Positions 12,601 to 60,000 of a DNA stretch of 64,000 nucleotides are shown here, one piece after another. A program made the position numbers and the translations under genes. This DNA comes from Mobula hypostoma. Lineage: Eukaryota. The DNA lies in assembly GCF_963921235.1 (NCBI RefSeq), contig NC_086097.1:682001-746000 (forward strand), given 5' to 3'. Below the pieces are notes generated by a model. It was not told where the DNA came from. It worked only from the letters and a program-made list of their open reading frames with translations, and ran no database searches. Position 1 is the stretch's first letter, and each line of letters opens with the position of its first letter.

Positions 12601-15600
12601 CCTGTGGATGCAGTCCGGAGACCCAGACGGTAGTTTGCCTCCCTGGTGCCAAGGTCCAGGATGTTTCTGATCGTGTCCAAGAGATCCAGAAGTGGGAGGG
12701 AGAGGAGCCAGAGGTCGTGGTACATATAGGTACCAATGACATAGGTAGAAAAAGGGAAGAAGTCCTGAAAGGAGAATATAAGAGTTAGGAAGGGAGTTGA
12801 GAAAAAGGACCGCAAAGGTAGTAATCTCGGGATTACTGACTGTGCTACGCGACAGTGAAAGTAGGAATGCAATGAGGTAAAGGATAAATGCGTGGCTGAG
12901 GGATTGGAGCAGGGGGCAGGGATTCAAGTTTTTGGATCATTGGGACCTCTTTTGGCGCAGGTGTAACCTGTACAAAAAGGATGGGTTACACTTGAATCCT
13001 AGGGGGACCAATATCCTGGCAGGGAGATTTGCGAGGGCTACTGAGGTGACTTTAAACTAGAATGGTTGGGGGGTGGGAATCAAATTAAAGAGACTAGAAG
13101 GGAGGAGGTTAGTTCACAAATAGAGAAAGCTAGCAGACAGTGTGTGAGGGAGGATAGGCAGGTGACAGAGAAGTGGAGCACTCAGACCAAAGATGTAGGG
13201 GACAAGGAAGAAAAAGATAACAAAGTTGTTTGCTCCATTAAGGATAAACAGAGAGTAAGAGGTGGAGAGTTTCTTAAATGCAATTATTTTAAAGCTAGGA
13301 GCATCGTAAGAATGGTGGATGAGCTTAGAGCATGGATTGATACCTGGAAATGTGATGTTGTAGCTATGAGTGAAACATGGTTGCAGGAGGGGTGTGATTG
13401 GCAACTAAATGTTCCAGGATTTCGTTGCATCAGGTGTGATAGAATAGGAGGGGCAAGAGGGGGAGATTTTGCATTGCTAGTCAGAGAAAATATAACAGCG
13501 GTGCTCTGGCAGCATAGATTAGTGGACTCGTCTAGGGAGGCTATTTGGGTGGAATTGAGGAATGCAAAAGGTATAGTGACGCTTAAAGGGGTGTGTTATA
13601 GACCACCTAATGGGGACCGAGAACTGGAGGAGCAAAATTGTAAGAAGATAGCAGATATTTGTAGTAAGCACAAGGTTGTGATTGTGGGAGATTTTAATTT
13701 TCCACACATAGACTGGGAAGCCCATTCTGTAAAAGGGCTGGATGGTTTGGAGATTGTCAAATGTGTGCAAGATAGTTCTTTGCAGCAATACATAAAGGTA
13801 CCAACCAGAGAAGGGGCAGCATTGGATCTCCTATTAGGGAATGAGATAGCGCAGGTGACAGAGGTATGTGTTGAGGAGCACTTCAGGTCCAGTGATCACA
13901 ATGCCATTAGTTTCAATATAATTATGGAGAAGGATAGGACTGGACCCAGGGTTGAGATTTTTGATTGGAGAAAGGCTAACTTTGAGGAGATGCCAAAGGA
14001 TTTAGAAGGAGTGGATTGGGATAATTTGTTTTATGGGAAGGATGTAATAGAGAAATGGAGGTCATTTAAAGGTGAAATTTTGAGGGTACAGGATCTTTAT
14101 GTTCCTGTTAGGTTGAAAGGAAAGGTTAAAAGTTTGAGAGAGCCATGGTTTTCAAGGGATATTGGAAACTTGGTTTGAATAAAGAGAGGGATCTACAATA
14201 AATATAGGCAGCTTGGAGTAAATGAGGTGCTTGAGGAATATAAAGATTGTAAAACGAATCTTAAGAAAGAAATTAGAAAAGCTAAAAGAAGGTATGAGGC
14301 TGCTTTGGCAAGTAAGATGAAAATAAATCCAAAGAGTTTTTACAGTTATATTAATAGCAAAAGGATAGTGAGGGATAAAATTTGTCCCTTAGAGAATCAG
14401 AGTGGACAGCTACGTGCGGAGCCAAAAGAGATGGGGGAGATTTTGAACAATTTCTTTTCTTTGGTATTCATTAAGGAGAAGGATATTGAATTGTGTAAGG
14501 TAAAGGAAACAAGGAGGGTAGTTATGGAAAGTATGATGATTAAAGAAGAGGAAGTACTGGTGCTTTTAAGGAATATAAAGTGGATATGTCTCTAGGTCCG
14601 GACAGGATATTCCTTGAGGGAAATTAGTGAGGAAATAGCAGGGGCTCTGACAGAAATATTTCAAATGTCATTAGAAACAGGGATGGTGCCGGAGGATTGG
14701 CATATTGCTCGTGGTTCCATTGTTTAAAAAGGGTTCTAAGAGTAAACCTAGCAATTATCGGCCTGTGAGTTTGACATCAGTGGTGGGTAAATTGATGGAA
14801 AGTATTCTTAGAGATGGTATATATAATTATCTGGATAGACAGGATCTGATTAGGAACAGTCAACATGGATTTGTGCATGGAAGGTCATGTTTGACAAATC
14901 TTATTGAATTTTTTAATGAAGTTACTAGGAAAGTTGACGAGGGTAAAGCGGTGGATGTTGTCTATATGGACTTCAGTAAGACCTTTGACAAGGTTCCACA
15001 CGGAAGGTTAGTTAGGAAGGTTCAATCGTTAGGCATTGATATCGAAGTAGTAAAATGGATTCAACAGTGGCTGGACGGGAGACGCCAGAGAGTAGTGGTG
15101 GATAACTGTGGGTCAGATTGGAGAACGGTGTGTAGCAGTGTGCCTTAGGGATCTGTATGGGTCCAATGTTGTTTGTCATATACATTAATGATCTGGATGA
15201 TGGGGTGGTAAATTGGATTAGTAAGTATGCAGATGATACTAAGATAGGTGGCGTTGTGGATAATGAAGTAGGTTTTCAAAGCTTGCAGAGAGATTTAGGC
15301 CAGTTAGAAGAGTGAGCTGAAAGATGGCAGATGGAGTTTAATGCTGAAAAATGTGAGGTGCTACATTTTGGTAGGACTAATCAAAATAGGACATACATGG
15401 TAAATGGTAGGGCATTGAAGAATGCAGTAGAACAGAGGGATCTAGGAAAAATTGTGCATAGTTCCTTGAAGGTGGAATCTCATGCGGACAGGGTGGTGAA
15501 GAAAGCTTTTGGTATGCTGGCCTTTGTTAATCAGAGCAGTGAATGAAGGAGTTGGGATGTAATGTTGAAATTGTATAAGGAATTGGTAAGGCCAAATTTG

Positions 15601-21600: not shown

Positions 21601-24600
21601 AGTGGATGTTGTCTACATGGACTTCAGTAAGGCCTTTGACAAGGTCCCGCATGGGAGGTTAGTTAGGAAAATTCAGTCGCTAGGTATACATGGAGAGGTG
21701 GTAAATTGGATTAGACATTGGCTCGATGGAAGAAGCCAGAGAGTGGTGGTAGAGAATTGCTTCTCTGAGTGGAGGCCTGTGACTAGTGGTGTGCCACAGG
21801 GATCAGTGCTGGGTCCATTGTTATTTATCATCTATATCAATGATCTGGATGATAATGTGGTAAATTGGATCAGCAAGTTTGCTGATGATACAAAGATTGG
21901 AGGTGTAATAGACAGTGAGGAAGGTTTTCAGAGGGACTTGGACCAGCTGGAAAAATGGGCTGAAAAATGGCAGATGGAGATTAATACTGACAAGTGTGAG
22001 GTATTGCACATTGGAAGGACAAACCAACGTAGAACATACAAGGTTAATGGTAAGGCACTGAGCAGTGCAGTGGAACAGAGGGATCTGGGAATACAGATAC
22101 AAAATTCCCTAAAAGTAGCATCACAGGTAGATAGGGTTGTAAAGAGAGCTTTTGGTACATTGGCCTTTATTAATCAAAGTACTGAGTATAAGAGCTGGAA
22201 TGTTATGATGTGGTTGTATAAGGCATTGGTGAGGCTGAATCTGGAGTATTGTGTTCAGTTTTGGTCACCAAATTACAGGAAGGATATAAATAAGGTTGAG
22301 AGAGTGCAGAGAGGGTTTACAAGGATGTTGCCGGGTCTTGAGAAACTCAGTTACAGAGAAAGGTTGAATAGGTTAGGACTTTATTCCCTGGAGCGTAGAA
22401 GAATGAGGGGAGATTTGATAGAGGTATATAAAATTATGATGGGTATAGATAGAGTGAATGCAAGCAGGCTTTTTCCACTGAGGCAAGGGGAGAAAAAAAC
22501 CAGAGGACATGGGTTAAGGGTGAGGGGGGAAAAGTTTAAAGGGAACATTAGGGGGGTCTTCTTCACACAGAGAGTGGTGGGAGTATGGAATGAGCTGCCA
22601 GGCGAGGTGGTAAATGCGGGTTCTTTTTTAACATTTAAGAATAAATTGGACAGATACATGGATGGGAGGTGTATGGAGGGATATGGTCCGTGTGCAGGTC
22701 AGTGTGATTAGGCAGAAAATGGTTCGGCACAGCCAAGAAGGGCCAAAGGGCCTGTTTCTGTGCTGTAGTTTCTATGGTTCTATGGTAAGCAGGATTTGTG
22801 AACATTTGGAGAGACATACCCTTTGTCAAAGGTAGGTCATGCCTTACAAGCCTGATTGAATTTTTTGAGGATGTGACTAAACACATTTATGAAGGTAGAG
22901 CAGTACATGTAGTGTATATGGATTTCAGCAAGGCGTTTGATAAGGTACCCCATGCAGGGCTTATTGAGAAAGTAAGGAGACATGGAATCCAAGGTGACCT
23001 TGCTTTGTGGATCCAGAATTGACTTGCTCACAGAAGGCAAAGTGTGTTTGTAGACGGATCATATTCTGCATGGAGGTCGGTTACCAGTGGTGTGTCTCAG
23101 GGATCTGTTCTGGGACCCCTTCTATTCGTAATTTTTATAAATGACCTGGATGAGGAAGTGGGGGGAAGGGTTAGTCAATTTGCTGATGACACAAAGGTTG
23201 GGGGTGTTGTGGATAGTGCGGAGGGCTGTCAGAGGTTACAGTGGGACATCAATAGGATGCAAAACTCAGCTGAGAAGTGGCAGATGGAGTTCAACCCAGA
23301 TAAGTGTGAGGTGGTTCATTTTGGTAGGTCAAATATGATGACAGAATATAATATTAATTGTAAGACTCTTGGCAGTGTGGAGTGTCCGAGTCCATAGGAC
23401 ACTGAAAGCTGCTGTGCAGGTTGACTCTGTAGTAAAGAAGGCATACGGTGCATCGGCCTTCATCAATCGTGGGATTGAGTTTAAGAGCCGAGAGGTAATG
23501 TTGCAGCTATATAGGAACCTGGTCAGACCCCACTTGGAGTACTCTGCTCAGTTCTAATCACCTCACTACAAGAAGGACGTGGAAACTATTGAAAGGGTGC
23601 AGAGGAGATTTTCAAGGATGTTGCCTGGATAGGGGAGCATGCCTTATGAGAATAGGTTGAGTGAACTCGGCATTTTCTCCTTGAAGCAGCGGAGGATGAG
23701 AGGTGACCTGATAGAGGTGTACAAGATACTGAGAGGCATTGATCGTGTGGATAGTCAGAGGCTTTCTCCCCAAGGCTGAAATGGCTAACACGAGAGGACA
23801 CAGGTTTAAGGTGCTTGGAAGTAGGTACAGAGAAGATGGCAGGGGTAAGTTTTTCACACAGAGTGGCGAGTGTGTGGAATGGGCTGCCAGCAACGGTGGT
23901 AGAGGTGGATACAATAGGGTCTTTTAAGAGACTCCTGGATAGGTACATGGAGCTTAGGAAAACAGAGGGCTATGGGTAACCTTAGGTAATTTCTAAGTAA
24001 GTACATGTTCGGTACAGCATCGTGGGCCCCAAGGGTCTGTGTTGTACTGTAGATTTTCTGTGTTTTCTATGTTCTATCTTTGCTTTTTTGACCATCTGTC
24101 CTATCCTGAGTCCCTTCATTCTGGTTCCCACCCCCCTGCCAAATTAGTTTAAACCCTCCCCAACAGCTCTAACAAACCTGCCTGCAAGAATATTGTTCCC
24201 CCTCGGGTTTCAGTGCAACCTGTCCCTTTTGTATAGGTCATACTTCCCTCAGAAGAGATCCCAATGATCCAAGAACCTGAAGCCCTTCCCCTGCACCAGC
24301 TTCTCAGCCATGCATTTATCTGCCAAATCATCTTGTTTCTACCCTCGCTAGCACATGGCACAGGTAGCAATCCAGAAATTACTATCCTGAAGGTCCTGCT
24401 CTCAACTTTCTGCCTAGCTCTCTAAATTCTCTCTTCAGGACCTCATTGCTTTTCCTTCCTATGTCATTGCTACCGATATGTACCAAGACATCTGGTCGCT
24501 CTCCCTCCCTCTCTAAATAATGTCGTAGACTACTTTCAAAATGGAGAGAAAATTCAAAAACCTGAGATCCAGAGGGACTTTGGAGTCCTTGTGCAGGATT

Positions 24601-27600: not shown

Positions 27601-30600
27601 ATGTGCTGGCAGCTCATTCCATATCCTCTTGACCCTCTGAGTAAAGAAGTTTCCTCTCATGTTCTCCTTAAACTTTTCACCTTTCGCCTTTAACCCATGA
27701 CTGTAGTCCCACCCAACCTCGGTGGAAAAAGCCTGTTTGCATTTTCCCAATCAATACACCTCCATAATTTTGTATATTCAATCAAATCTCCTCTCAATCT
27801 TCTATGTTCCAAAGAATAAAGTCCTAACCCATTCAATCTTTCCTTCTAATTCAGTTCCTCCAGACCCAGCAAAATCCTTGTAATTTTTCTGTGCATTCTT
27901 TCAACGTTACTTTAAGTCAAGTCAAGTTTATTGTCATTTCGACCATAAGCCGCTGGTACAGTACACAGTAAAAACGAAACCATGTTCCTCCAGGACCTTG
28001 GTGCTACATGAAACAACACAAAACTACACTAAACTATGTGAGACAGCACAAGGCTACACTAGACTACGTAAAATAACATAAAAACTGCACTAGACTACAG
28101 ACCTGCACAGGACTACATAAAGTGCACAAAACAGTGCAGGGCAGTACAATAATTAATAAACAAGACAATAAACACAGTAGAGGACAAATTACAGTATAAT
28201 AATAAATGATGTAGATGTCAGTCTAGACTCTGAGTATTGAGGAGTCTGATGGCTTGGGGGAAGAAACTGTTGCACAGTCAGGTGACCACAACTGCACACA
28301 ATACTCCCCATTGGGCCTCACTAATATCTTATACAACATCAACATAGCATTTCACCTCCTGTACTCGATACTTTGATTTCTGAATGCCAATGTTCCAAAA
28401 GCTTTCTTTACAATCTTATTTACCTGTGATGAATGATGGACCTCTATTCCCAGATCCCTTTGCTCTACTACACTCCTCAGTGCCCTACCGTTCACTGTAA
28501 AATAAAGGGCTAATTACCCTAGGTAATTTCTCAGGTAAGGACATGTTCAGCACAGCTCTGTGGGCCAAAGGGCCTGTATTGTGCTGTAGGTTTTCTATGT
28601 TTCTATGTCTCTCATTATCGCCATGATCTAATTTTTAATTAAGAGCAGTATGTTGACAGAATAATGTGGAGTACCTGAAATATGGATTTATACCAGCACC
28701 AAGTAACCAACAGCAGCCAATATATCTGTTGTGTGAAAAAGTTTTTTTTCCAAATGAAGCAATGAAACTGTCCAGGTTCCTTGAACGTTTGAAGAGAATA
28801 CACTCTGATAAAGCAAACAAGAACTTGGCTTATTGTCAGTCACTTCGTGAAAACTTTCAGAAATGAAAAAACACTCAAAACATGTATGCCAGCACTTCAT
28901 AACAAAAGAGTAATGGTTTGCATGCTTCATACAATATTTCATTGCTCATTGCTAAATCTGGAAAGCCCCATACAATTGGAGAAGAACTGACTGTGCAACA
29001 GTAAGAGAGCTTCTGGGTAATGTTCTACACAAGTCACCAGAGCAAATAATTAAAGTGATTCCACTCAGTGACAACTTTGTTTAAAGATGAAATGTCTGAG
29101 AATGTGGAAGACACAATGTGCAACATGAATGGGACAATGGAATTCACTCTGCAGTTGGATAGGTCAATTTGCCAGGCAATGAATCTTTGCTTCTGGCTTA
29201 TGTTCGCTTCATAAAACATGAAAGCATGGTACAGTAATCACAAACAAGAGAAAATCTGCAGATGCTGAAAACCCAAGCAAAATAGGCAGCACCTATGGAA
29301 AAGAGTATTGTCGATGTTTCAGGCCGAAACACTTTGAAATATTTTGTGTGTGGCATGGTACTAGAGTTTTTATTTGCAAGGGGACTAGAAATAGATATGA
29401 CGGAGAGTCAATATTCAGGTTGTTGAACAATTTTTCAAAGAGGACATTCTGCTCAACAATATTCTTGCTTGTGCAACAGATGGGCACCATCAATGAAAGG
29501 ACACTACCCTAGGCTATTACTTTCTTGAAAAAAAACTGTATGTAACATAATAGTATTTACCATTCACTGTATAATTCAGATACCTTCTCACAAAAATCCT
29601 ACGTGATCAGCTGCATAAATCATTAAATACTGTTATCACAGCAGTAAATAAAATCAGGTCCCATGCTCTCAATTCTCAACTATTTCAAGAAATTTGTATT
29701 GAGAATGATCAACAGTTTGAATGCTTGCTGTTGTACACAGAAGTCAGATGGCTTCATTGTCACTTTTGCATCAGTCTTCAATGCGGAAGATTCTGACAGT
29801 ATAATGAAAGTTTGAAAGCGTCAGAGGTCAGAAGTATGTGAAGTTGCCATTACGAGGAAGAAGTATCTTGGAAAACTGAAAGGTCTGAAGGTAGATAAGT
29901 CACCTGGATCAAATGGTGTACACCCCAAAGTTCTGAAAGAGGTGGCTGAAGAGAGTGTGGAGGCATTAGTAATGATCTTCCAAGAATCACTAGATTCTGG
30001 AATGGTCATAATAACATAGAAAACCTACAGCACAATACAGGCCCTTCGGCCCATGATGCTGTGCCCTCTATTTTTCTAAGCTCTATGTACCTATCCAGGA
30101 GTCTCTTAAAAGACGCTATCAAATCCGCCTCCATCACCGTCGCCAGCAGCCCATTCCACACACTTACCACCCTCTGGGTAAAAAACTTGCCCCGACATAC
30201 TTCCTCTGTACCTACTTCCAAGCACCTTAAAACTGTGCCCTCTCGTGTTAGCCATTTCAGCCCTGAGAAAAAGCCTCTAACTAGCTACACCATCAATGCC
30301 TCTCATCATCTTATACACCTGGAAGACTGGAAAATTGAAAGTGTCACTCCACTCTTCAAGAAGGGAGAGGAGCAGTAGAAAGGAAATTGTAGGCCACTTC
30401 ATCTCTTCTCAGTGGTTGGGAAGATGTTGGAGTTGATAGTTGAGGATGTGGTTTTGAAGTACTTGAATGCACATGATAAAATAGGCCGTAGTCAGCTTGA
30501 TTTCCTCAAGGGAAAATCTTGCCTGACAAATCTGTTGAAATTCTTTGAAGAAGTAACAAGCAGGATAGACAAAAGAGAATCGATGGATGTTGTATACTTG

Positions 30601-33600: not shown

Positions 33601-36600
33601 GATATGATGGCAGCATTGAGGCAGATCAGATGAGAAGAGGGTACAGAATGGGGTCGACTCAGCACTAGGGAATAGAGTAAAAGGAAACAGAGATGTTCCT
33701 GTTGGCAATGGATGGGAGTGGGGGTACCACCGGGAGATTGATGGGCAGCAGAAATGTGTGGGACCAGTTCAGGGGGAGAGTAGATGGTGGCTGCATTGTG
33801 GAATTACAGACAGTCCTTCCTCACTCACTCTGCAGGAACGTTTGCGATGGTTATACGGCCAAAGTGTTGCGGGCTGTCTCCTGGAACATAAATGTTCATC
33901 AGTCAGTGGTAGGTGCAAGTGCAACAAGACAAAGCACAGACTTCCCCCTCCCAGTGGTCAGAGCCAGTGGTTTTATCCAGTGTCTGCAGCCCAAGGCTAG
34001 CTCCTTGCTCTTGACCAATTCACTTGCCCTCCCCTTCCTCAGCTCCCAGTTCTACCCCAGTCTCTCCAATGTGAAAACTTAGATCGCTCCATGGTCTCAC
34101 AGGACCTGAACTTGTTCTGGTCCACCACCACCCTGATTTCTCTGCAAGCCCCCAAACAAAGAGGCACCTGGTATTCACAAATGTAATAACTAGTGCCAAC
34201 ACCTCCAGTTTAGGAAATTAGCCCTCTGCACCTCTCTCTTCCCTACAATGATCTTTAGGGTGCACCTCTTTGGCCAGGCTTTTGATCCATCTGCCACACT
34301 TCCCCACCTACTCTGTTACACACACCTGTTACTGCTGACCTCTGGTGCCATGCCTTCTCTGCTCCCAGTAAGATCCCAGACAAAGGAGCAGAATTAGGCC
34401 ATTGAGCCCATCGAGTCTGCATCGCTATTCAATCATGGCTGATTTATTATTCCTCTTTATAAGACCATACCCCGTTATAAGACCTTAAGACATTCTCCTG
34501 TCTTCTCCCCATAACCTCTTCACATGCCTACTAATCAAGAACCTATTAACCTCTGTTTTAAGTATGCCCAGAGATAGCCTCCACAGCCATCTGTGGCAAT
34601 GAATTCCACAGATTCACCATCCTCTGACTAAAGAACACAGATCCTTACCCAGCAGGTCCCCCGAGAAGTTGACAGGAAGGATGATGGCGATGGAGAAGAC
34701 ACAGACCACACTGAGGAGAACTAAGATGTGACGCTGGAACGAGAGATACACGATGGCGTCGATTCCGCACTTGTATTGAATTTCATCATCTCTGAGTACA
34801 AACACAGTGGATACAGCTCCAGTTTCACAGACAGCTACAAGAACTGCTATCAGCCCATCCCCTCCCAACACCTCTGCTTCCTCTGCCCTTGTTCCTTCTC
34901 ACCTCATGTTGTGGCTTCTAATGCTCCTCATTCACTCCTACAGAGCCCTGTCACTCGATGTACTCTGCCCAAAATGCTCTCCCTCAGCCCCTTCTTCACC
35001 ACAGCCCCTCACAGCATCCTCCCTCATTTTTAGCAGGGCGCCAGTTCAAAACCATCTGTGTAAACGGAAGCAGGGAGAAAACCTGACATCGACATCACTA
35101 CTGAATGTGAATATTTCACAACGAGCAAGTCAGTGGTTGACTATACTGCCACTTCACAGCCTCCCCAGGGAGGTATAAGGCAGGATAAAAAGGAACAACA
35201 TCCACTTGCAGGGATGACTGCAGCTCCAACACCTCCCATCTTGGATAAAGCAGCATGTTTGATTGTCCACCCCAATCCCAGTTCACCACAAAAAACATTC
35301 CCTCCACTACTGGTGTAGAGTGGTGGTAGAATATACCACCTGCAAAATGCACTGCCGATTTCTAAAAGAACCTCACAAATTCGTAACCTCTATGACCCGT
35401 GATGCAGCGGGAGTGTTTAAAAGAGAGACGATTAATGGAGCAGGTGACGGAGTAGTGGGAGACAGAGTAGGAAGGCTTTGACTTCTGAGGCTTTGGTGAG
35501 CTGAGGAAGAGCTTCACTCCAAGTGAGGTAAGGTTGGGTAAGTTCCTTTAATAAATCTAATTACCTTAAGAGTAGGTAATGGAGGCAGCAGTTAGGGCAA
35601 TTGAGTGCTCCATTTGCAGTATGTGGGAAGTCAGGGCGAGCACAATCGTCCCTGATGATTACACCTGTAAAAGGTGCATCCAGCTGCAGCTCCTGATAAA
35701 CCGAGTTAGGGAGCTGGAGCTGGATGAACTTCGGATCATTCGGGAGGCAGAGGCAGAAATAAACAGGAGTTACAGGGAGATAGTCACCACTAAGAGTCAG
35801 GAGACAGGTAGCTGGGTGACTGTAAAAAGAGGGAAGGGGAATAGACAGAATGAGCAGAGCACTCCTGTGGTTGTTCTCACCAATAATAAGTACATCGTTT
35901 TGGACACTGTTGAGGGGGACGACCTACCAGGGACAAGTTGCAGTGGTTGTGTCTCTAGCACCGAGATGGGACCCTCAACTCAGAAGGGAAGGAGGGAAAA
36001 GAGGAGAGCAGTAGTGATAGCGGATTCGATAGTTAGGGGGACAGATGAGAGGTTCTGTGGAAGAGATCGAGAATCCCAGATGGTCTGTTACATCGCTGGT
36101 ACCAAGGTCCGCAATATCTCGGATCGAGTTCTCGGTATTCTCAAGAGGGAGGGTGAGCAGCCGGATGTTGTGGTCCATGTAGGGACTAATGACATGGGTA
36201 GGAAGAGTGAGGAGGTCCTGAATGGTGAGTTTAGGGAGATAGGTGCCAAGTTAAAGGACAGGACCTCCAGGATAGCAATCTCAGGATTGCTACCAGGGCC
36301 ACGCGCAGGCGGGTTTAGAAATAGTAAGATAGCGCAGATCAACACGTGGCTGAAGACATGGTGCAGGAGGGAGGGCTTCAGATTTATAGATAATTGGGCA
36401 GTTTTCCAGGGAAGATGGGACCTGTTCCGGCGGGACCGTTTACATCTGAACTGGAGGGGGACAAATATTCTTGCAGGTAGGTTTGCTAGAAAGGATCCGG
36501 TGGATTTAAACTAGATACAAGGGGGGAGGGGAACCAGAGTGTAGGAACAGATGTAGGGGAGAAGGAAGAAAAAGAAAATAGTAAAGTTGTTTGCACCGTT

Positions 36601-39600
36601 GGTGATAAACAGAGAGTAAGAGGTGGAAAATTTCTTAAATGCATTTATTTTAATGCTAGGAGCATTATAAGAAAGATGCATGAGCTTAAAGCATGGATTG
36701 ATACCTGGAAGTATGATGTGGTAGCTATTAGTGAAACTTGGTTACAGGCGGGGTGTGATTGGCAACTAAATATTCTTGGATTTAATTGCTTCAGGTGTGA
36801 TAGAATTGGAGGGACAAGAGGGGGAGATGTTGCATTGCTTGTCAGAGAAAATCTTACAGCAGTGCTCTTGCAGGATTGGTTAGAGGGCTCATCTAGGGAG
36901 GCTATTTGGCTGGAATTGAGGAATGGAAAAGGTGTAGTAACACTTATGGTGGTGTATTATAGACCACCAAATGGGGAGCAAGAATTGGAGGAGCAAATTT
37001 GTAAGGAGATAGCAGATATTTGTAGTAAGCACAAGGTTGTGATTGTGGGAGATTTTAATTTTCCACACATAGACTGGGAAGCCCATTCTGTAAAAGGGCT
37101 GGACGGTTTGGAGTTTGTAAAATGTGTGCAGGAAAGTTGTTTGCAGCAATACATAGAGGTACCAACTGGAGAAGGGGCAGTGTTGGATCTCCTGTTAGGG
37201 AATGAGATAGGTCAGGTGACAGAGGTTTGTGTTGGGGAGCACTTCAGGTCCAGTGATCACAATGTTATTAGTTTCAATATAATTATGGAGAAAGATAGGT
37301 CTGGACCCAGGGTTGAGATTTTTGATTGGAGAAAGGCTAACTTTGAGGAGATGTGAAAGGATTTAGAAGGAGTGGATTGGGACAATTTGTTTTATGGGAA
37401 GGATGTAATAAAGAAATGGAGGTCATTTAAAGGTGAAATTTTAAGGGTACAGGATCTTTATGTTCCTGTTAGGTTGAAAGGAAAGGTTAAAAGTTTGAGA
37501 GAGCCATGGTTTTCAAGGGATATTAGAAATTTGGTTCGAAAAAAGAGATATCTACAATAAATATAGGCAGCATGGAGTAAATGAAGTGCTCGAGGAATAT
37601 AAAGAATGTAAAAAGAATCTTAAGAAAGAAATTAGAAAAGCTAAAAGAAGATATGAGGTTGCTTTGGCAAGTAGGTGAAAATAAATCCCAAAGGTTTCTA
37701 CAGTTATATTAATAGCAAAAGGATAGTGAGGGATAAAATTGGTCCCTTAGTGAATCAGAGTAGTCAGCTATGTGTGGAGCCGAAAGAAATGGGGGAGATT
37801 CTGAACAATTTCTTTTCTCGGTATTCACTAAGGAGAAGGATATTGAATTGTGTAAGATAAGGGAAACAGGTAGGGAAGTTATGGAAACTATGATGATTAA
37901 AGAAGAGGAAGTACTGGTGCTTATAAGAAATATAAAAGTGGATAAGTCTCCGGGTCCTGAAAGGATATTCCCTCGGACCTTGAGGGAAATTAGTGTGGAA
38001 ATAGCAGGGCCTCTGACAAGGTCATGTTTGACAAACCTTATTGAATTTTTTGAAGAGGTTACCAGGAAAGTTGACGAGGGTAAAGCGGTGGATGTTGTCT
38101 GTATGGACTTCAGTAAGACCTTTGACAAGGTTCCACATGGAAAGTTAGTTAGGAAGGTTCAATCGTTAGGTATTAATATTGAAGTAGTAAAATGGATTCA
38201 ACAGTGGCTGGATGGGAGACGCCAGAGAGTAGTGGTGGATAACTGTTTGTCAGATTGGAGCCCAGTGACTAGTGGTGTGCCTCAGGGATATGTACTGGGT
38301 CCAATGTTGTTTGTCATATACATTAATGATCTGGATGATGGGGTGGTAAATTGGATTAGTAAGTATGCAGATGATACTAAGATAGGTGGAGTTGTGGATA
38401 ATGAAGTAGGTTTTCAAAGCTTGCAGAGAGATTTAGGCCAGTTAGAAGAGTGGGCTGAAAGATGGCAGATGGAGTTTAATGCTGATAAATGTGAGGTGCT
38501 ACATTTTGGTAGGACTAATCAAAATAGGACATACATGGTAAATGATAGGGCATTGAAGAATGCAGTAGAACAGAGGGATCTAGGAATAATAGTGCATAAT
38601 TCCTTGAAGGTGGAATCTCATGTGGATAGGATGGTGAAGAAAGCTTTTGGTATGCTGGCCTTTATTAATCAGAGCATTGAGTATAGGAGTTGGGGTGCAA
38701 TGTTGAAATTGTACAAGGCATTAGTGAGGCCAAATTTTGATCATTGTGTACAGTTTTGGTCACCGAATTACAGGAAAGATGTCAACAAAATAGAGAGAGT
38801 ACAGAGAAGATTTACTAGAATGTAACCTGGGTTTCGTCACCTAAGTTACAGAGAAAGGTTGAACAAGTTGGGTCTTTATTATTTGGAACGTAGAAGGTTG
38901 AGGGAGGACTTGATAGAGGGATTTAAAATTATGAGGGGGATAGATAGAGTTGACGTGGATAGGCTTTTTCCATTGAGAGTGGGGGAGATTCAAACAAGAG
39001 GACATGAGTTGAGAGTTAAAGGGCAAAAGTTGAGGGGTAACACGAAGGGGAGCTTCTTTACTCAGAGAGTGGTAGCTGTGTGGAACAAGCTTCTAGCAGA
39101 AGTGGTTGAGGCAGGTTCGATGTTGTCGTTTAAAGTTAAAATTGGACAGCTATATGGACAGGAAAGGAATGGGGGGTTTTGGGCTGAGTGCAGGTCGGTG
39201 GGACTAGGTGAGAGTAAGAGTTCAGCGTGGACTAGAAGGGCTGAGATGGCCTGTTTCCATGCTGTAATTGTTATATAGTTATATGACCAAGGTGGTCATG
39301 GGCAACAGGTGATTAGGAACACCACCATCCACACAGCCATTCCTTCTCACAACATCTTCGAAGATAGAACATAAAACAATCTATCAGAAATCAATCTGTC
39401 AGAAATTCTGTTCCATTTCGCTTGATTATTCTGTTCAAACTGAGACCCAACTGGAGAACTTCTTCCTGTAATTCCTTCTTCTGACACCCAGTCACTATAC
39501 TACATGTTAAATAAGCAGACACTTCATTGGTCACATCATTCTTTCTGAATGTTTGCAGTTTCATTTTTTATTGTTTGTTACCTTAAATGGTTCTTAACCT

Positions 39601-45600: not shown

Positions 45601-48600
45601 AATTCATTTCAAGAGGACTAGAATATAAAAGCAATTATATAATGTTGAGACTTTATAAAGTGCTGATGAGGCTTCACATGGACTATTGTGAGCAGTTTTG
45701 GACCATTTATCTTGGAAAGGATGTATTGAAAATGGACAGGGTTCAAAGGAGATTCATGAAAATGATTCCAGAATTGAATGGCTTGTCGTATGAAGAGCCT
45801 TTGATGGTTCTGGACTTGTATTCTCTGAAATTCAGAAGAATGAGGGGTGACCTCATTGAAACCTATCAAATGGTGAAAGGCTGACACTTCATTGGAAAGG
45901 GTACAGAGGAGATTTACCAGGATGCTGCCTGGTTCAGAGAGTATGCATTATGATCAGAGATTAAGGGTGCTAGGGCTTTACTCTTTGGAGAGAAGGAGGA
46001 TGAGAGGAGACAAGATAGAGGTGTACAAGATAATAAGAGGAATAGATAGAGTGGATAGCCAGTGCCTCTTCCCCAGGGCACCACTGCTCAATACAAGAGG
46101 ACATGGCTTTAAGGTAAGGGGTGGGAAGTTCAAGGGAGATATTAGAGGAAGTTTTTTTTTACTCAGAGAGTGGTTGGTGCGTGGAATGCGCTGCCTGAGT
46201 CAGTGGTGGAGGCAGATACACTGGTGAAGTTTAAGAGACTACTAGACAGGTATATGGAGGAATTTAAGGTGGGGGGTTATATGGGAAGCAGGGTTTGAGG
46301 GTCAGAACAACATTGTGGGCCGAAGGGCCTGTAATGTGCTGTACTATTCTATGTTCTATGTTCCCAACACTGTATTCCATTTACACTACTTTGCCCACTC
46401 CCCTAATCTGTCTAAGTCCTTCTGTAGCCTTCTTGCTTCCTCAAAACTACCTTCACTTCCATCTATCTTCATATTGTCTGCAAACATTACAACAAAGCCA
46501 TCAATCCATCATCCAAATCATTGACCGATAATGTAAAACGTATCTGTCCTAACACAGACTCCTGTCACTGGCAGCCAATCAGAAAAGGCTTCCTTTATTC
46601 CCACTCTTTGCCTCTTGCCAATCAGCCACTGCTTTATTCATTCTATAATCTTTACTCTAATAACTTGGGTTGATAGGTTGTTAAGCAGCCTCATTTGTGA
46701 CACAAGTACACAACATCAACCGGTTCTCTTTTGTTCATCCTGCTTGTTATCCTGACGATCCTTCCAGAAACTGTGGAAATATCGGAAAGACAGGCTGTCG
46801 TGACGGTTCCTCTTCTCATTTGGTTCCCCAGGTTTTCTGTCGGACCTTTTAAGGGCTCAATTGATTTCCTTCTCCTTGTAGCCATTCTGTAGGAATGTCG
46901 TTCGTAATCTTCTTATTTCCTCGTGGAGACTCTCCAGATCCAAAATAGTTTTCACAGGGTTAATCACGTGGTCTTATACCTTAACAATAACAGCCACCAT
47001 CACACTTCCCAACAGATAGTGGGTCTTTCCACTTATATTTCCATGGTTTCTGGAAGGATCACCAGGATGCTGAAGAAATACTGGATTAATACCAGACAGA
47101 AATCTGTAAGGAAGTTCAAGTTAGAGTTTAGGGAAGATCCGGCTTGGGTGAGGTTTTTTTCTCTCTCCCTCTCTCTCTCTCTCTCTCCCTCCCTCTCCCT
47201 CTCCTGATATTTGTTCATTTCTTATCTGTTAGGGCATAGTAGGTCAGTGAGAATAGCTATAGGGGATGTCCTCTGTGTGGGATATGGGAAATCTGGGAGA
47301 CCTCCAGTTGCCAGATTCACACATCTGCACTAAGTGCACCAAGTTGTAGCTCCTAACAGAACGTATTAAGGAAATGGAGCTACAGCTTGATGACCTTTGA
47401 CTCAAACAGGAGAATGATATGATGGACAGGAGCTACAGGGTGGTAGTCAGCCCTAAATTGCAGGAGACAAGAAAGTGAGTGACTGTTAGGAGGAGGGGAA
47501 ATGCACAGCCAATGCAATTTACACCTGTAGTCATCCCCTCAATAATAATTATACCACTTTACATACCAATGAGGGGAACAACCTACCAGATGGGAGCCAC
47601 AGTGACCAGGTTTCTGGCACTGAGTCTGGCGCTACGGCTCAGAAGAGCAGAGTGCTAAAGAGGAGTGCAGTGTTGATAGGAGATCTCTTAGTCATAAAAA
47701 CATAGACGAGGTTCTGTGGGCATGATAGAGACACCCAGATAGTATGTTGCCTCCCTGGTGCCAGCATCTGGGATGTCTCAGATCGGGTCCATGGCATTCT
47801 CAAGGGCAAGGATGAGCATCCAGGTGTCTTGGTACATATTGTGACCGAGGACAAAAATGTGGGTCAAAGTAGACCTGGGACTTAGGATGGCTGGTATTTA
47901 CAGGATTCCCTGTGAATGCGGAGCAGCGTATATCAGCCAGACAAGATGCATGGTGGAAACCTGCATCAAGGAGCACAGGGGGTCTACCTGTTTGGTTTAC
48001 CCGGGGAAATCAGTGGTGGCAGAACATTCATTCGCAATGGCCCAAGGATCGACTTCGATGGCAGAAAACTACTGTGCCAATGGCTTTTGGGACCATTTGA
48101 GATCATCATTCCAAATTAAGTTGGGAGAGTTTGTCATCGAAACATCGGTTACAGTCGATTCCTGTACCTAGCTGGAAGCCCAAGAAGAGGTTTTTCTCCC
48201 TTTGAAATTTTGATCATCATGACACACCACTGACGTTGAATGTCCAATTCAGAGAAAACTGCTGTGAAGCTTTGCTTTTAACTCTTGAAAGTGGACCCGA
48301 CCGAAAGGTAGCTCTTTTTAAGCACTGCCTTTTTCTGATTGGTTGCTCTGCAACTCAGAGAAACTGCCACAAAACTGCCTTTTGAATCTCAATTGCCGTC
48401 CTGATTAAAAGGTAGCTATTTTTACACAACACTAACGTTGATTGTCTAACTCAACTTTTTAACCTTTTATGCCTTGACTTATCAAGAACCTATCAACCTC
48501 CATCTTAAATACACTCAATGACCTGGCCTCCTTTATCGAATCACTTGTCATATGAAGAGCGTTTTTTATGGCTCTGAACCTGTATTCATTGGAATTCAGA

Positions 48601-51600: not shown

Positions 51601-54600
51601 GTCTGCTCTGCCATTTTATCATGAGCTGATCCATTCTCCCATTTAGTCCCACTCCCCCACCTTCTCACCATAACCTTAGACGCCCTGGCTACTAGGATAA
51701 ATTGTCGAAGGTTGCAGAGAGACATTGATAGGATGCAAAAGACCATAAGACCATAAGACAGAGGAGCAGAAGTCGGCCATTCGGCCCATCAAGTCTGCTC
51801 CGCCATTTTATCATGAGCTGAATCCATTCTCCCATTTAGTCCCACTCCCCCGCCTTCTCACCATAACCTTTGAAGCCCTGGCTACTCAGATACCTATCAA
51901 TCTCTGCCTTAAATACACCCAATGACTTGGCCTCCACTGCTGCCCGTGGCAACAAATTCCATAGATTCACCACCCGCTGACTAAAAAAATTTCTTCGCAT
52001 TTCTGTTCTGAATGGGCGCCCTTCAATCCTTAAGTCATGCCCTCTCGTACTAGACTCCCCCATCATGGGAAACAACTTTGCCACATCCACTCTGTCCATG
52101 CCTTTCAACAGTCAAAGTATGACTATGACTGTGACTATTCGAAATGTTTCTATGCGGCCTCCCCTCATTCTTCTACACTCCAAGGAGTACAGTCCAAGAG
52201 CGGACAAACGTTCCTCATATGTTAACCCTCTCATTCCCGGAATCATTCTAGTGAGTCTTCTCTGTACCCTCTCCAACATCAGCACATCCTTCCTTAAATA
52301 AGGAGACCAATACTGCCCACAGTACTCTAAGTGAGGTCTCACCAGTGCCTTAAGTGGGCTGAGAAGTGGCAGATGGAGTTCAACCTGGAGAAGTGTGAGG
52401 TGGTACACTTTGGAAGGGCAAACTCCAAGGCAGAGTACAAAGTAAATGGCAGGAAACCTGGTAGTGTGGTGGAGCAAAGGGATCTGGGGGTACACATCCA
52501 CAGATCCCTGAAAGTTGCTTCACAGGTAGATGAGGTAGTTAAGAAAGCTTATGGGGTGTCAGCTTTCATAAGTTGAGGGATAGAGTTTGAGAGTCGCGCG
52601 GTAATAATGTAGCTCCATAAAACTCTGGGTAGGCCACACTTGGAGTACTGTGTCCAGTTCTGGTCGTCTCACTATAGGAAGGATGTGGAAGCATTGGAAA
52701 GGGTACAGAGGAGATTTACCAGGATGCTGCCTGGTTTAGAGAGTATCCCCTCCTCCCCTTTTTCTGCCCTCTTTATCTCTTTTAAAGCACTGAAATCCAG
52801 GAATATTGAGAATCCATTCCTGCCCTGGTGCCAGCCAAGTCTCTGTAATGGCCACTACATCATAATTCCATGTACGTATCCAAGCTCTCAGTTCATCACC
52901 TTTGTTCCTGATGCTTCTTGCATTGAGGTACACACACTTCAGCCCTTCTACCTTACTACCTTTACACCTTTTATTCTGCTTCTCTTTCCTCAAAGCCTCT
53001 CTAAATGTTAGATCTGGCTTTACTCCATGCACTTCTTTCACTGCTCTATCGCTCCGGGTCCCATCCCCCTTGCAAATTAGTTTAAACCCTCCCGAACCAT
53101 GCTAGCAAACCTACCTGCAAGGATATTGCTCCCCCTCGAGTTCAGGTGCAACCCATCCAATCTGTACAGGTCCCACCTTCCCCAGAAGAGATCCCAATGA
53201 TCTAAAAATCTAAAACCCTGCTCCCTGCACCAACTCCTCAGCCACACATTCAACTGCCATCTCCTCCCATTCTTATCATCACTGTCATGTAGCACTGGCA
53301 GCAATCCTGAGAATGCCACCCTTGAGGTCCTGTTCTTCAGCCTTCAGCCTAGTTCCCGAAATTCACACTTCAGGACCTCATCTCTCTTCCTGCCTATGTC
53401 GTTGGTCCCAACATGTATCATGACTTCTGGTTGCTTTCCCTCTCATACCAGGATGTTGTGCACTCGGTCAGAGACATCCCAGACCCTGGCACCCGGGAGG
53501 CAACAAACCATGCGGGTGTCCTTCTCATGTCCACAAAATCTCCTGTCTGCTCCCCTGACTATAGAGTCTCCAATATCGACAGCTCTCCTCTTCTCTGTCC
53601 CACCCTTCTGCACCACAGGGTCAGACTCAATGCCAGAGGCCCTGCCACCATGGCTCATACCTGGTCGGTCGTCCCCATGAACAGTATCCAGGACGGTAAA
53701 CTTATTATTCAGGGGAATGGCTACAGGGGTGCTCTGCATTACCTGTCTGCTCACCTTCCCTTTCCCTCCTCTGACTGTCACCCAACGACCTGCTTCCGAC
53801 AGCCTCGGTCTGACTACTTCCCTGTAGCTCTCATATATGACTGCCTCATTCTCCCTTATGAATCGAAGGTCATCCAGCTGCTCCAGATTCCTTACATGGT
53901 CTTCCAGATCGCCCAGCCGTATGCACTTCTGGCAGATGTGACTCTGTGGGAGAGGGGCGTTCCCCCAAGACTGCCATATCTAACATGAGAGGCACATCAC
54001 CGTCTCAGGAGGCATTGTAAAGACTAACTGCGAGCAAGCCTCTCGAGTCAAAGCCTCAAAGCTCCACTCCTTCGCTGGCCCACTCACTCACTGGCCGCTT
54101 TCCACTTTTCTAGTTTAAGGTTAAATCAGGGGTTGTTGGGTGTTGCTGGGTTTTGCAGCTTGAAGGGCTGAAAGAGCATTTTTCACACTGTATCTCTAAA
54201 TAAAATAAACCACCACAGCCATCTTCCCCTGAATGAGGTATGATTCCAACCAGCAAAGTGATTCTCACTGACTCCAGTTTAACCAGGGCTCGATCAAATG
54301 GTTCTTGGCAGGGAATTGACGAACATAGACCACAAACAGGCGGATGCGCAGTTTAATTTGGCATCAGAGCCAACCCAGATTCCATGGGCCAAAAGGCCTA
54401 CTTCTATTCTATATTGTTCCATAGTCCACGTACAACAGGACATGGATCAACTGGAAAAGTAGACAAGGGAATGGCAGAGAGAGTCTACTTGAGTAAGCAT
54501 GAAATTGTGGGGAAGTTAAACCGGGGAGATCTGAAAGAGAACAGCAGAGCCTTGGGGAGTGATGCTGAACAGAAAGACCTTAACATACAAGTGCATGGAT

Positions 54601-56250: not shown

Positions 56251-57024
56251 TGAATGGGTTGAAGGGCCTGTTTCTGCCTAGTTTTAACTGTCATACATAA
56301 AGTACTGGTCAAGGAGTATAGCTGCTTGTCAAAGACAGTTCCTTCATCACAGATCCACAGAGAAAAGGTGACTTGATCCACTCCTTTAATACGGTTCTGT
56401 CTCCTTGGATCTGTGGGAGAACCTAATAACCGTTTGGTTGTTGTGCTGAACTAACTGCTTCCCTCCACCAGCTCTCGAAAAGCAAATCTACTGGGCTCAA
56501 CCAACTGTGGAGTTTATGAAGGCTTTCTAGGCTTTGCTGAGGAAGACTGGTGCCCAGGCTGATCTCTCTTGTGCCACAGGACAGTTATAGAGAGAGTCAT
56601 AGAGTCACAAAGCGATACCGCACAGTTACAGGCCCTTCATCCCAACTGGACCTTGCTGGCCAGAACCAATTTCCTGCATTTGGCCCATATATCTCATGCG
56701 TTCCTACATGTACCTATCCAAAAACTTTTCAAATGATACTATTGTACTTGTCGCAACCACTTCCTCTGACAGCTCATTCCATATACATTTGATTTCCTCT
56801 TGCTTAGGAAGAGCAATATCCCTAACCTTGCCATCCTTGAACACCCTGCTACCTCTGATTACACACTATGACAGTGCCAGTAGCATTATTTTTCACCCAG
56901 AGAGTTGTGGATCTGTGGAATGCTCTGCCTCAGAAGGCAGTGGAAGCCAATTCTCTGGATGCTTTCAAGAAAGAGTTAGATAGAGCCCTTAAAGATAGTG
57001 GAGTCAAGGGACATGGGGAGAAGG

Positions 57025-60000
57025 ACATGGGACCTCTTCTGGGGCAGGTGGGACCTGTACAAGAGAGACGGGTTACACTTGAACTACAGGGGGACCAATA
57101 TCCTTTCAGGGAGGTTTGTTAGTGCTATTGGGGAGGCTTTAAACTAGATTTGCAGGGGGATGGGAACCAGAGTGCCAGAGCTGACAGTGTGGCTGGGGTG
57201 AAAATAAATGATGTTAAAAGTGCAAGCAAATCCGCAAATACAAAGGTTGTGAGTGGTGGTAAAAATCTTCTGAGGTGTATATATTTCAATGCTAGGAGTA
57301 TTGCGGGGAAGGTGGATGAGTTGAGGGCGTGGATTGACACGTGGAATTATGACGTTATAGCAATTAGTAAAACTTGGCTACAGGAGGGGCAGGACTGGCA
57401 GCTTAATATTCCAGGGTTCCGATGTTTCAGATGTGATCGAGGCAGACGAATGAAAGGTGGGGGAGTAGCATTGCTTGTTAGGGAAAATATTACAGCAGTG
57501 CTCAGGCCGGACAGATTAGAGGGCTTGTCTACTGGGTCCCTATGGGTGGAGCTGAGAAACAGGAAAGCTATGGCCACATTAGTGGGATTGTATTACAGAC
57601 CATCCAATAGTCAACGAGACTTGGAAGAGCAAATCTGCAGAGAGATAGCAGGCAACTGCAGGAAACATAAAGTTGTGGTGGTAGGGGATTTTAATTTTCC
57701 ATATATTGATTGGGATTCCCATACTGTTAGGGGTCTAGATGGTTTAGAGTTTGTAAAATGTGTTCAGGAAAGTTTTCTAAATCAATATATAGAGGGACCA
57801 ATTAGAGGGATTGCAATATTGGATCTCCTGTTAGGAAACGAGTTAGGACAAATGACGGAAGTCTGTGTAGGGGAGCACTTTGGTTCCAGTGATCATAACA
57901 CCATTATTTTCAATTTGATCATGGACAAGGATAGATCTGGTCCTCGGGTTGAGGTTCTGAACTGGAAGAAGGCCAAATTTGAAGAAATGAGAAAGGTTCT
58001 AAAAGGCGTGGATTGGGACAGGTTGTTCTCTGGCAAAGATGTGATCGGTAGGTGGGAAGCCTTCAAAGGAGAAATTTTGAGAGTGCAGAGTTTGTATGTT
58101 CCTGTCAGGATTAAAGGCAAAGTAAATAGGAATAAGGAACCTTGGTTCTCAAGGGATATTGCAACTCTGATAAAGAAGAACAGGGAGTCGTATGAAATGT
58201 ATAGGAAACAGGGAGTAAATCAGGTGCTTGAGGAGTATAAGAAGTGCAAGAAAATACTTAAGAAAGTAATCAGGAGGGCTAAAAGAAGACATGAGGTTGC
58301 CTTGGCAGTCAAAGTGAAGGATAATCCAAAGAGCTTTTACAAGTATATTAAGAGCAAAAGGATTGTAAGGGATAAAATTGGTCCTCTTGAAGATCAGAGT
58401 GGTCGGCTACGTGCGGAACCAAAGGAAATGGGGGAAATCTTAAATAGGTTTTTTGCGTCTGTATTTACTAAGGAAACTGGCATGAAGTCTGTGGAATTAA
58501 GGGAATCAGGTAGTCAGATCATGGAAACTGTACAGATTGAAAAGGAGGAGGTGCTTGCTGTCTTGAGGAAAATTAAAGTGGATAAATCGCCGGGACCTGA
58601 CAGAGTGTTCCCTCGGGCCTTGGAGGAGACTAGTGTTGAAATTGTGGGGGCCCCGGCAGAAATATTTAAAATGTCGCTGTCTACGGATGAGGTGCCGGAG
58701 GATTGGAGAGTGGCTCATGTTGTTCCGTTGTTTAAAAAAGGATCGAAAAGTAATCCGGGAAATTATAGGCCGGTAAGTTTAACATCAGTAGTAGGTAAGT
58801 TATTGGAGGGAGTACTTAGAGACAGAATCTACAAGCATTTGGATAGACAGGGACTTATTAGGGAGAGTCAACATGGCTTTGTGCGTGGTAGGTCATGTTT
58901 GACCAATCTATTGGAGTTTTTCAAGGAGGTTACCAGGAAAGTGGATGAAAGGAAGGCAGTGGATATTGTCTACATGGACTTCAGTAAGGCCTTTGACAAG
59001 GTCCCGCATGGGAGGTTAGTTAGGAAAATTCAGTCGCTAGGTATACATGGCGAGGTGGTAAATTGGATGACATTGGCTCAATGGAAGAAGCCAAAGGGCG
59101 GTAGTAAAGAATTGCTTCTCTTGTGTGGAGGCCTGTGACTAGTTGTATGCCACAGGGATCAGTGCTGGGTCCATTGTTATTTGTCATCTGTATCAATGAT
59201 CTGGATGATAATGTGGTAAATTGGATCAGCAAATTTGCTGATGATACAAAGATTGGAGGTGTAGTAGACAGTGAGGAAGGTTTTCAGAGCCTGCAGAGGG
59301 ATTTGGACCAGCTGGAAAAATGGGCTGAAAAATGGCAGGTGGAGTTTAATACAGACAAGTGTGAGGTATTGCACGTTGGAAGGACAAACCAAGGTAGAAC
59401 ATACAGGGTTAATGGTAAGGCACTGAGGAGTGCAGTAGAACAGAGGGATCTGGGATTATGGATACAAAATTCCCTAAAAGTGGCGTCACAGGTAGATAGG
59501 GTCCTAAAGAGAGCTTTTGGTACATTGGCCTTTATTAATCAAAGTATTGAGTATAAGAGCTAGAATGTTATGATGAGGTTGTATAAGGCATTGGTGAGGC
59601 TGAATCTGGAGTATTGTGTTCAGTTTTGGTCACCAAATTACAGGAAGGATATAAATAAGGTTGAAAGAGTGCAGAGAAGGTTTACAAGGATGTTGCCAGG
59701 ACTTGAGAAACTCAGTTACAGAGAAAGATTGAATAGGTTAGGACTTTATTCCCTGGAGTGTAGAAGAATGAGGGGAGATTTGATAGAAGTATATAAAATT
59801 ATGATGGGTATAGATAGAGTACATGCAAGCAGGCTTTTTCCACTGAGGCAAGGAGAGAAAAAGACCAGAGGACATGGGTTAAGGGTAAGGAGGGAAATGT
59901 TTAAAGGGAACATTAGCGAGGGCTTCTTCACACAGAGAGTGGTGGGAGTATGGAATGAGCTGCCAGACGAGGTGGTAAATGCGGGTTCTTTTTTAACATT

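Follow-up and report, generated by a model that had tools for sequence, protein, structure and literature searches.

A candidate programmed −1 frameshift site at the ORF1/ORF2 junctions of CR1-group LINEs in the Mobula hypostoma genome

How the second gene of a long interspersed nuclear element (LINE) comes to be translated is a long-standing open question, and it is raised several times over by a single 64,000-nucleotide (nt) stretch of the genome of the ray Mobula hypostoma (NC_086097.1, positions 682,001 to 746,000; this whole stretch is called the window below, and positions in it are counted from its first letter). In the window, divergent copies of CR1-group elements, the dominant retrotransposons of many vertebrates, end their first open reading frame (ORF1) with the heptamer U_UUA_AAC directly followed by a stop codon, and the second (ORF2), which encodes an endonuclease and a reverse transcriptase (RT), lies in the −1 frame. 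Judging by sequence comparison, we think it rather probable, if far from certain, that the U_UUA_AAC_UAR with which CR1 ORF1 closes acts as a programmed signal for −1 recoding, through which ORF2 comes to be translated. Were this true, a slip-and-stop site of only 10 nt would explain how the ORF2 protein (ORF2p) arises, and also why it does so rarely. The pattern extends well past the window, to the ray genome at large and, apparently, to the jawed vertebrates.

The five sites on which the question turns lie exactly where an earlier note on this DNA, made from the letters alone, had placed them: 13051-13060 (+), 36505-36514 (+), 57138-57147 (+), 53077-53086 (−) and 24144-24153 (−). A pattern count gives these five matches to TTTAAACTAR in the window against 0.41 expected, and none of 100 shuffled sequences yielded five; the bare TTTAAAC is found 23 times, with 10.5 expected. 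All five heptamers are in phase with ORF1, as had been claimed, the preceding codon being ACT, GAT, GCT, GGT and GGT respectively, the next two TTA and AAC, and the last TAG or TAA. The observation that the preceding (−3) codon varies with a constant T in its third position, while Leu is always TTA and Asn always AAC, likewise holds for the five copies. Each site terminates an ORF of the GDSL/SGNH esterase type (Pfam Lipase_GDSL_2, PF13472, E 5.3e-12), and the Pfam matches of ORF2 are to the APE endonuclease (Exo_endo_phos PF03372 / PF14529) and to the RT (RVT_1, PF00078). The four copies that retain ORF2 have it in the −1 frame with no Met ahead of the endonuclease motif ..Y(F/L)(N/K)ARS.., again in agreement with the earlier note, and this frame opens merely 2-5 codons 5' of the heptamer. 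The G-rich tract reported a little further on is present and proves more regular than had been described, with GGGGG starting exactly 10 nt past the heptamer in all five copies. The assertion that the site stands at every intact junction is good for the five recognisably intact ones, which are also the only readable junctions among the numerous 5'-truncated CR1 fragments found by tblastn in the window; at 6167-6201 (−) a sixth junction, which is old and decayed, has lost its heptamer. The junctions (J1 to J5, and the sixth) and the reading frames that flank them are as follows; lengths are in amino acids (aa).

12463..13060, + strand: J1 ORF1, 5'-truncated, from about residue 114; ends ..ACT TTA AAC TAG
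13051..13072, + strand: J1 recoding motif; heptamer, TAG, 10-nt spacing, G tract
13051..15070, + strand: J1 ORF2, −1 frame, open to 14178; APE by Pfam, with a lineage-specific insertion in the linker preceding APE
35576..36514, + strand: J2 ORF1, complete, 312 aa (PF13472, E 5.3e-12); zinc-knuckle-like N-terminus, coiled region, then GDSL/SGNH esterase; ends ..GAT TTA AAC TAG
36505..36526, + strand: J2 recoding motif; T_TTA_AAC at 36505-36511, TAG at 36512-36514, spacer, GGGGG at 36522-36526
36505..38207, + strand: J2 ORF2 (APE, then RT), −1 frame, open to 37356 and decayed beyond; no Met ahead of the NARS motif
57028..57147, + strand: J3 ORF1 end, the last ~40 codons, 5'-truncated at about 57028 (all genome matches begin at query base 91); ends ..GCT TTA AAC TAG
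57138..57159, + strand: J3 recoding motif; heptamer, TAG, 10-nt spacing, GGGGG
57138..60076, + strand: J3 ORF2 (APE + RT), −1 frame, open to 59138 and frameshifted beyond
53077..54024, − strand: J4 ORF1, 54% identical to J2 ORF1; ends ..GGT TTA AAC TAA
53065..53086, − strand: J4 recoding motif; heptamer, TAA, 10-nt spacing, GGGGG
52724..53086, − strand: J4 ORF2 N-terminus, first 117 residues only, −1 frame; Met-free up to ..CVYLNARS..
24144..24516, − strand: J5 ORF1, C-terminal fragment interrupted by one internal stop; ends ..GGT TTA AAC TAA
24132..24153, − strand: J5 recoding motif; ORF2 lost from about 28 codons onward
6167..6201, − strand: sixth junction, decayed; reads TCTAAGCAAATTTGGCAGGAGGATGGG.., homologous to TTTAAACTAATTTGGCAGGGGGATGGG.. 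of the younger families; heptamer region now TCTAAGCAAA, then ..GGCAGGAGGATGGG..; upstream of an old APE-RT remnant (4205-6039) that is 29% identical to young ORF2

To these five junctions we have added five more lineages. Three are further families of the ray genome, recovered with divergent protein queries as 181-nt stretches: one with a 324-aa ORF1 (F324), one with a 316-aa ORF1 (F316) and an old one near the catshark-type ORF1. The other two, L061 and L066, come from a metagenome scan that gave 11 loci, with a readable junction in these two and a decayed one in a third (L062); the ORF1 tail of L061 is 95% identical to a sturgeon record, and that of L066 is 64% identical to a snapping-turtle ORF1. 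Scans of genome contigs for DNA of other species returned bacterial GDSL lipases only, and a scan of viral contigs returned nothing. Between the ten lineages the identity of the ORF1 proteins (ORF1p) is about 24% to 60%; NNT TTA AAC TAR stands in all ten, throughout as an X_XXY_YYZ heptamer in ORF1 phase, and without a single synonymous variant of the heptamer. The −3 codon is ACT, GAT, GCT, GGT or CAT, which is to say five amino acids whose codons all end in T. As controls, the conserved Leu of the nearby DGLHLN motif is coded by TTA, TTG, CTG and CTC, and synonymous changes are likewise found in the conserved codons for Asp, Gly and Asn. In the codon usage of ORF1 (seven reads from three families, with the window copy read twice), TTA accounts for 15 of 161 Leu codons (9%) and AAC for 32 of 79 Asn codons, and T occupies 24% of third positions. 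Counting only six independent lineages, the chance of such agreement is of the order of 1e-12, a rough figure in view of their shared ancestry.

Beyond the heptamer, ORF2 is in the −1 frame in all ten lineages, and in nine of them this frame opens 1-5 codons 5' of the site. No conserved ORF2 start codon is found, an AUG ahead of the APE motif being absent from eight lineages and present, at codon 4, in F316 and L066 alone. At this point F316 (locus L091 of the ray genome) and L066 (1875-1887) both read TTTAAACTAATG, a UAAUG in which an ORF2-frame AUG overlaps the stop, with the heptamer kept. The stop context of the other eight lineages is UAGAU, UAGAA, UAAUU or UAAAU, so that overall the junctions do not have the overlapping stop and start of the silkworm (Bombyx) element SART1. 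The G tract is as constant as the heptamer: in 10/10 lineages GGGGG fills nt 18-22, counted from the first base of the heptamer, 10 nt past the heptamer and 7 nt past the stop. The codon 5' of its central GGG codes for L, R, Q or K and always ends in G, and the codon 3' of it codes for G, E, D or V and always starts with G.

A footprint of the same site can be read in ORF1p tails. A word-based search, together with a profile search of 1.84 billion representatives (the best 150 of 8410 matches, E ≤0.001), gave 197 proteins with the ORF1 profile, and the tails were counted in the 127 that have a complete C-terminus. Asn is terminal in 99 and preceded by Leu in 81 of these; the remaining Asn tails are GN (nine, all QGN), KN, EN and SN (two each), and IN, AN and FN (one each). 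Ahead of LN there are 13 different residues, and those whose codons are unable to end in T (K, Q, E, M and W) account for just one of the 81, compared with a background of 118/729 at positions −4 to −12 (binomial P about 1e-5); if the 50%-identity representatives are taken by themselves, the count is 1/50 (P about 7e-4). The named proteins ending in LN belong to rays, sharks, sturgeon, a deep-sea eel, three turtles, a tortoise, a snake, a monitor lizard and a swallow, and the nearest named ORF1 proteins are those of stingrays and other rays. Together, the ten diverged DNA lineages and the 81 tails strongly bear out the proposal of the earlier note that conservation is at the nucleotide rather than the peptide level; synonymous variation in the heptamer and a conserved ORF2 start codon, either of which the note would have taken as a refutation, are both lacking. 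The QGN, KN and EN tails are compatible, on the protein evidence alone, with G_GGA_AAC, A_AAA_AAC and G_GAA_AAC, and other lineages of LINEs with an esterase ORF1 appear to use equivalent NNA_AAC-stop sites. A search of the ray genome for nearer relatives of the QGN-type or turtle-type ORF1 gave only the ray's own families, at 32-39% identity.

Two side observations concern these protein records. The minority tails ..FFR, ..FFH and ..FFG (P0099, P0131, P0147 and P0182) could hide a slip site of the U_UUU_UUY type one codon before the stop. Some CR1 ORF1 proteins also go under other names, being labelled a Pseudomonas aeruginosa hydrolase (P0011), '40S ribosomal protein S24 isoform' (P0027), 'transmembrane protein 204 isoforms' (P0051/P0052) or 'UNVERIFIED_CONTAM' (P0074), and are likely the result of contamination or of gene models that have swallowed a LINE.

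U_UUA_AAC is the ORF1a/1b frameshift heptamer of the coronaviruses (infectious bronchitis virus and the family of the severe acute respiratory syndrome coronavirus). On our reading, the tRNA-Leu and tRNA-Asn on the CR1 site would re-pair one base back, from UUA to UUU and from AAC to AAA, while the adjacent stop codon, being slow to decode, would cause in the A site the pause for which coronaviruses employ a pseudoknot, with the G5 tract contributing in addition. A few percent of the ribosomes would then read CUA (Leu) and go on into ORF2. With the slip occurring before peptide release, the product would be an ORF1-ORF2 fusion (esterase-APE-RT) with the junction ..x-L-N-L-.., made at a high ratio of ORF1p to ORF2p; a LINE, needing far less ORF2p than ORF1p, would be well served by a slip that is only weakly stimulated and happens a few percent of the time. 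The earlier note had likewise proposed a slip into the −1 frame that yields a fusion. Entry into ORF2 by slippage is still the best reading and a fusion is probably its product; the invariably adjacent stop, there treated as incidental, is probably part of the signal. Such a fusion of esterase, endonuclease and RT, if it is made, would enforce cis-preference. Annotators would gain the true start of ORF2 and a simple marker of potentially competent copies.

The likeness to coronaviruses covers the phased U_UUA_AAC, the polymerase ORF without a start in the −1 frame and the extreme conservation of the site. The coronavirus signal differs in having a pseudoknot 5-7 nt downstream and a 0-frame stop that is not adjacent, whereas in CR1 the stop is adjacent, no structure is conserved and the G5 tract found 10 nt on is linear. 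Closer with regard to the stop are a luteovirus (barley yellow dwarf virus, BYDV) and a dianthovirus (red clover necrotic mosaic virus, RCNMV), where the heptamer is directly followed by the 0-frame stop and the polymerase is a low-abundance fusion. However, their heptamers are G_GGU_UUU or G_GAU_UUU and they rely on a bulged stem-loop and, in BYDV, on a long-distance interaction; nothing of the kind was found at the CR1 site. A parallel to the G tract is the nsp2TF signal of an arterivirus, the porcine reproductive and respiratory syndrome virus (PRRSV), in which a linear, unstructured C-rich motif ~10 nt past the slip site acts with a viral protein and poly(C)-binding proteins. The motif is linear and at ~10 nt in both cases, with a G5 tract in CR1.

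Of the features that mark a canonical −1 signal, the CR1 site has the phased heptamer, the −1 ORF without a start of its own and the suppressed synonymous variation, and it is without a structure 5-9 nt downstream. The earlier note had seen no convincing pseudoknot there, and our folds agree. RNAalifold on seven lineages gave no conserved hairpin or pseudoknot (2 pairs, −0.52 kcal/mol), single folds of the 83 nt past the heptamer in the same number of lineages gave z-scores of −1.52 to +0.82, none of them significant, a three-tier G-quadruplex motif occurs in none of the ten lineages (a weak two-tier one in six), and an Rfam scan of the whole window had 0 matches. The sequence 3' of the heptamer is purine-rich and C-poor. 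A long-range partner for the G tract was also considered. The best duplexes, ~640-650 nt upstream in J2, L027 and L066, were rejected as candidates, their positions differing in other lineages; their energies of −17 to −26 kcal/mol are nothing unusual where a G-rich 22-mer is concerned. The upstream complement is a C/U-rich stretch coding for a conserved, Pro-containing motif of ORF1, and may mean no more than that C-runs are scarce on a purine-rich strand.

The failure to find a fold weighs against a programmed frameshift, and other points must be set beside it. The G5 tract, at 10 nt, lies beyond the usual 5-9 nt. Two of the ten lineages (F316 and L066) have the UAAUG layout of a SART1-type restart. 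Among the complete tails, 28/127 lack the terminal N, some of them resembling LN or GN tails whose stop has mutated, and one ray or shark tail has E ahead of LN. The lineages share ancestry, which makes the probabilities rough. Nor can the retention of the motif in young families be counted in favour of the signal. Sixty loci were taken from two such families, one of them 98-99% and the other 95-96% identical to the query (with the window's own copy as one locus of each family), and they keep the heptamer in 59 cases and the stop in 57; the single altered heptamer has a C-to-T change, and TAG is altered by a point change in three J2-family copies, L042, L047 and L055, whose heptamer is intact. 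We have rejected this retention as evidence of selection; it reflects neutral inheritance, and because copies decay neutrally after insertion, retention within a family is uninformative on the matter.

The main rival, which in our judgement is rather unlikely, keeps the heptamer and the stop and changes the order of events. Here ORF1p would be released at UAR, after which the deacylated tRNA-Asn would slide from AAC to AAA, perhaps with tRNA-Leu still in the E site, and Leu-tRNA would be accepted on CUA to begin a Met-less, unfused ORF2p by a coupled restart. Post-termination ribosomes have been seen in vitro to migrate to codons cognate to their P-site tRNA. The stop abuts the heptamer in 10/10 lineages and ORF1p ends at N in 99/127 tails, neither of which is needed by classical P/A-site frameshifting. 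The phase of ORF2 is −1, as in UAAUG overlaps, and a UAAUG is present in two of the ten lineages. According to two papers on non-LTR (long terminal repeat) elements, SART1 itself couples ORF2 to ORF1 termination at UAAUG (PMC3708506, PMC3894237). The T at position 1 of the heptamer, on the other hand, is conserved (10/10 in DNA, with 80/81 tails compatible) and would be less obviously needed once the peptide has been released; therefore the tRNA on UUA must presumably also re-pair, which is natural for slippage of two tRNAs during elongation. Moreover, no restart-promoting structure or upstream motif complementary to 18S rRNA was found, though no systematic search for one was made, and the folds described above show no restart-enhancing downstream structure of the SART1 type.

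An ordinary restart at an AUG or near-cognate codon after the stop, in the manner of SART1 or human L1, would leave TTTAAAC to be kept either for the Leu-Asn end of ORF1p or as an unstructured A/U-rich context. Restart is the documented route, and non-LTR ORF2 initiation is otherwise called unresolved in the same two papers (PMC3708506, PMC3894237). Besides the UAAUG of F316 and L066, there is an AUU directly after the stop of J4, J5 and F324. We nevertheless consider this quite improbable. J1, J2, L061 and the P42-like lineage have neither an AUG nor a common near-cognate codon at this place, and the Leu codon is exclusively TTA (9% of Leu codons) behind a T-ending −3 codon that spans five amino acids; a peptide-level constraint is therefore no explanation. 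Least probable of all, and very much so, is that the block between the heptamer and about +40 serves as an RNA or DNA element outside translation (protein-binding, packaging or a promoter-like TTTAAA box) with an incidental ORF1 phase: conservation does reach ~40 nt past the heptamer, this segment is the one most widely shared among CR1 families in public contigs (peak 57138-57179) and no role in translation is assigned to the G5 tract, but such an element fails to explain the constant phase at the last two ORF1 codons, the adjacent stop, the −1 and mostly start-less ORF2, or the different yet slippery-compatible tails (QGN, KN) of other lineages.

If frameshifting is indeed the means of access to ORF2, which is the best reading of these sites, CR1 would be another case of −1 recoding in retroelements. 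It would resemble the retroviral and LTR gag-pol systems, and PEG10 with its G_GGA_AAC, in having an abundant first protein, a rare RT fusion and a tRNA-Asn on AAC that slips in the A site; the nine QGN clusters of ORF1p are, by protein only, compatible with the PEG10 type of heptamer. Those systems differ in being LTR- or Gag-based, CR1 being a non-LTR element with an esterase ORF1 and no protease to split the fusion. If both the G5 tract and the adjacent stop stimulate the slip, the architecture would be atypical for −1 recoding in retroelements. A vertebrate frameshift signal so short, lacking an RNA fold and accompanied by an unexplained G5 tract, would also be of interest to recoding research.

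Among LINEs, the ORF2 of the Dictyostelium elements TRE5-A and TRE3-A is stated to require a −1 frameshift in the accessible part of the relevant paper, where neither a canonical heptamer nor a conservation analysis is described (PMC5911963); these are APE-type LINEs like CR1, of another clade and host. In SART1 and human L1, ORF2 depends, as it would in CR1, on ribosomes that have translated ORF1, and the UAAUG of SART1 gives the same −1 phase. SART1, however, uses an AUG and a downstream structure without a slippery heptamer, and L1 has an inter-ORF spacer, whereas in CR1 the AUG is absent from 8/10 lineages and the heptamer is invariant. In the available sections of the two papers on non-LTR translation, the way ORF2 is translated is described as unclear, and restart, internal ribosome entry sites and 2A are the only possibilities discussed (PMC3708506, PMC3894237), and in the part of a 2016 recoding review open to us HeT-A and TART are the sole non-LTR elements mentioned. 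Wording on frameshifts, overlaps or slippery sites in this sense is absent from the accessible text of a 2026 survey of the CR1 group (PMC13343379), a 2014 study of ORF1 in the Jockey superfamily and a 2013 paper on the esterase structure. For the junction of ORF1 and ORF2 in CR1, the full-text literature gave us no report of a slippery site or of frameshifting, older subscription papers on CR1 and L2 being outside the search. The 2026 survey also recognises no type of ORF1 other than the esterase one in vertebrate CR1 and L2, with chondrichthyan L2 lacking an ORF1, and puts CR1-group elements at 22-34% of elasmobranch genomes (PMC13343379).

A bolder generalisation, which we regard as possible but doubtful, is that the CR1-group LINEs of jawed vertebrates have kept a structure-free −1 cassette for several hundred million years, consisting of U_UUA_AAC, an obligatory adjacent stop and G5 at a fixed 10 nt as a new type of stimulator, and that a general NNA_AAC-stop rule (U_UUA, G_GGA, A_AAA, G_GAA), in which tRNA-Asn slips next to a stop, controls access to ORF2 across the LINEs with an esterase ORF1. 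In such a cassette the G5 tract might act through a G-tract-binding factor supplied in trans, either a host protein or ORF1p itself with feedback on ORF2 synthesis, or else through contact with the ribosome.

The related copies in the ray genome are very numerous. Against the 3.48-Gb assembly (200 contigs), the junction queries had at least 3308, 5187, 3086 and 9512 matches, which are not copy numbers. Two of 30 loci of the J3 family combine an ORF1 of ~320-325 aa with an ORF2 that stays open as far as the 3.4-kb locus reaches, with the first Met of the ORF2 frame about 110-150 codons in, within the APE domain. At another locus of the genome (L093) the ORF1 stop has changed from TAA to GAG, lengthening ORF1 to 355 aa. 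An extra G in the G-run just 5' of the heptamer has placed ORF1 and ORF2 of L094 (contig C1, near 217.9 Mb) in one frame of 1097 aa; we have rejected this as functional evidence, the one-base insertion being apparently accidental. Independent support for the constancy of the site comes from public contigs (four runs from four organisms, aligned on 57040-57440 at ≥80% likeness), in which the listed variants fall at 57131, 57134, 57136, 57137, 57147 and 57148, none of those listed lying within 57138-57146; the list excludes 72 weaker variants. Depth is at its maximum over 57138-57179, and the alignments of other families start exactly at 57138 in 315, 20, 20 and 4 contigs of the four runs.

By virtue of their APE-RT ORF2, their esterase ORF1 and their octamer tail, the elements classify as CR1-group LINEs, with L061 and L066 belonging to CR1 proper or a sister clade. 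Octamer-repeat 3' tails in place of poly(A) are a hallmark of CR1, and copy J3 has such a tail:

60135..60151, + strand: J3 3' tail, octamer TTCTATGG x2, a microsatellite end just beyond ORF2

Similar octamer repeats occur at 22770-22786, 28592-28612 and 46347-46363, along with minus-strand equivalents, at the 3' ends of many CR1 copies. Finally, the local GC skew is strong across the window, up to +0.44 per 4 kb, and changes with the direction in which the CR1 copies, whose sense strand is purine-rich, are oriented.

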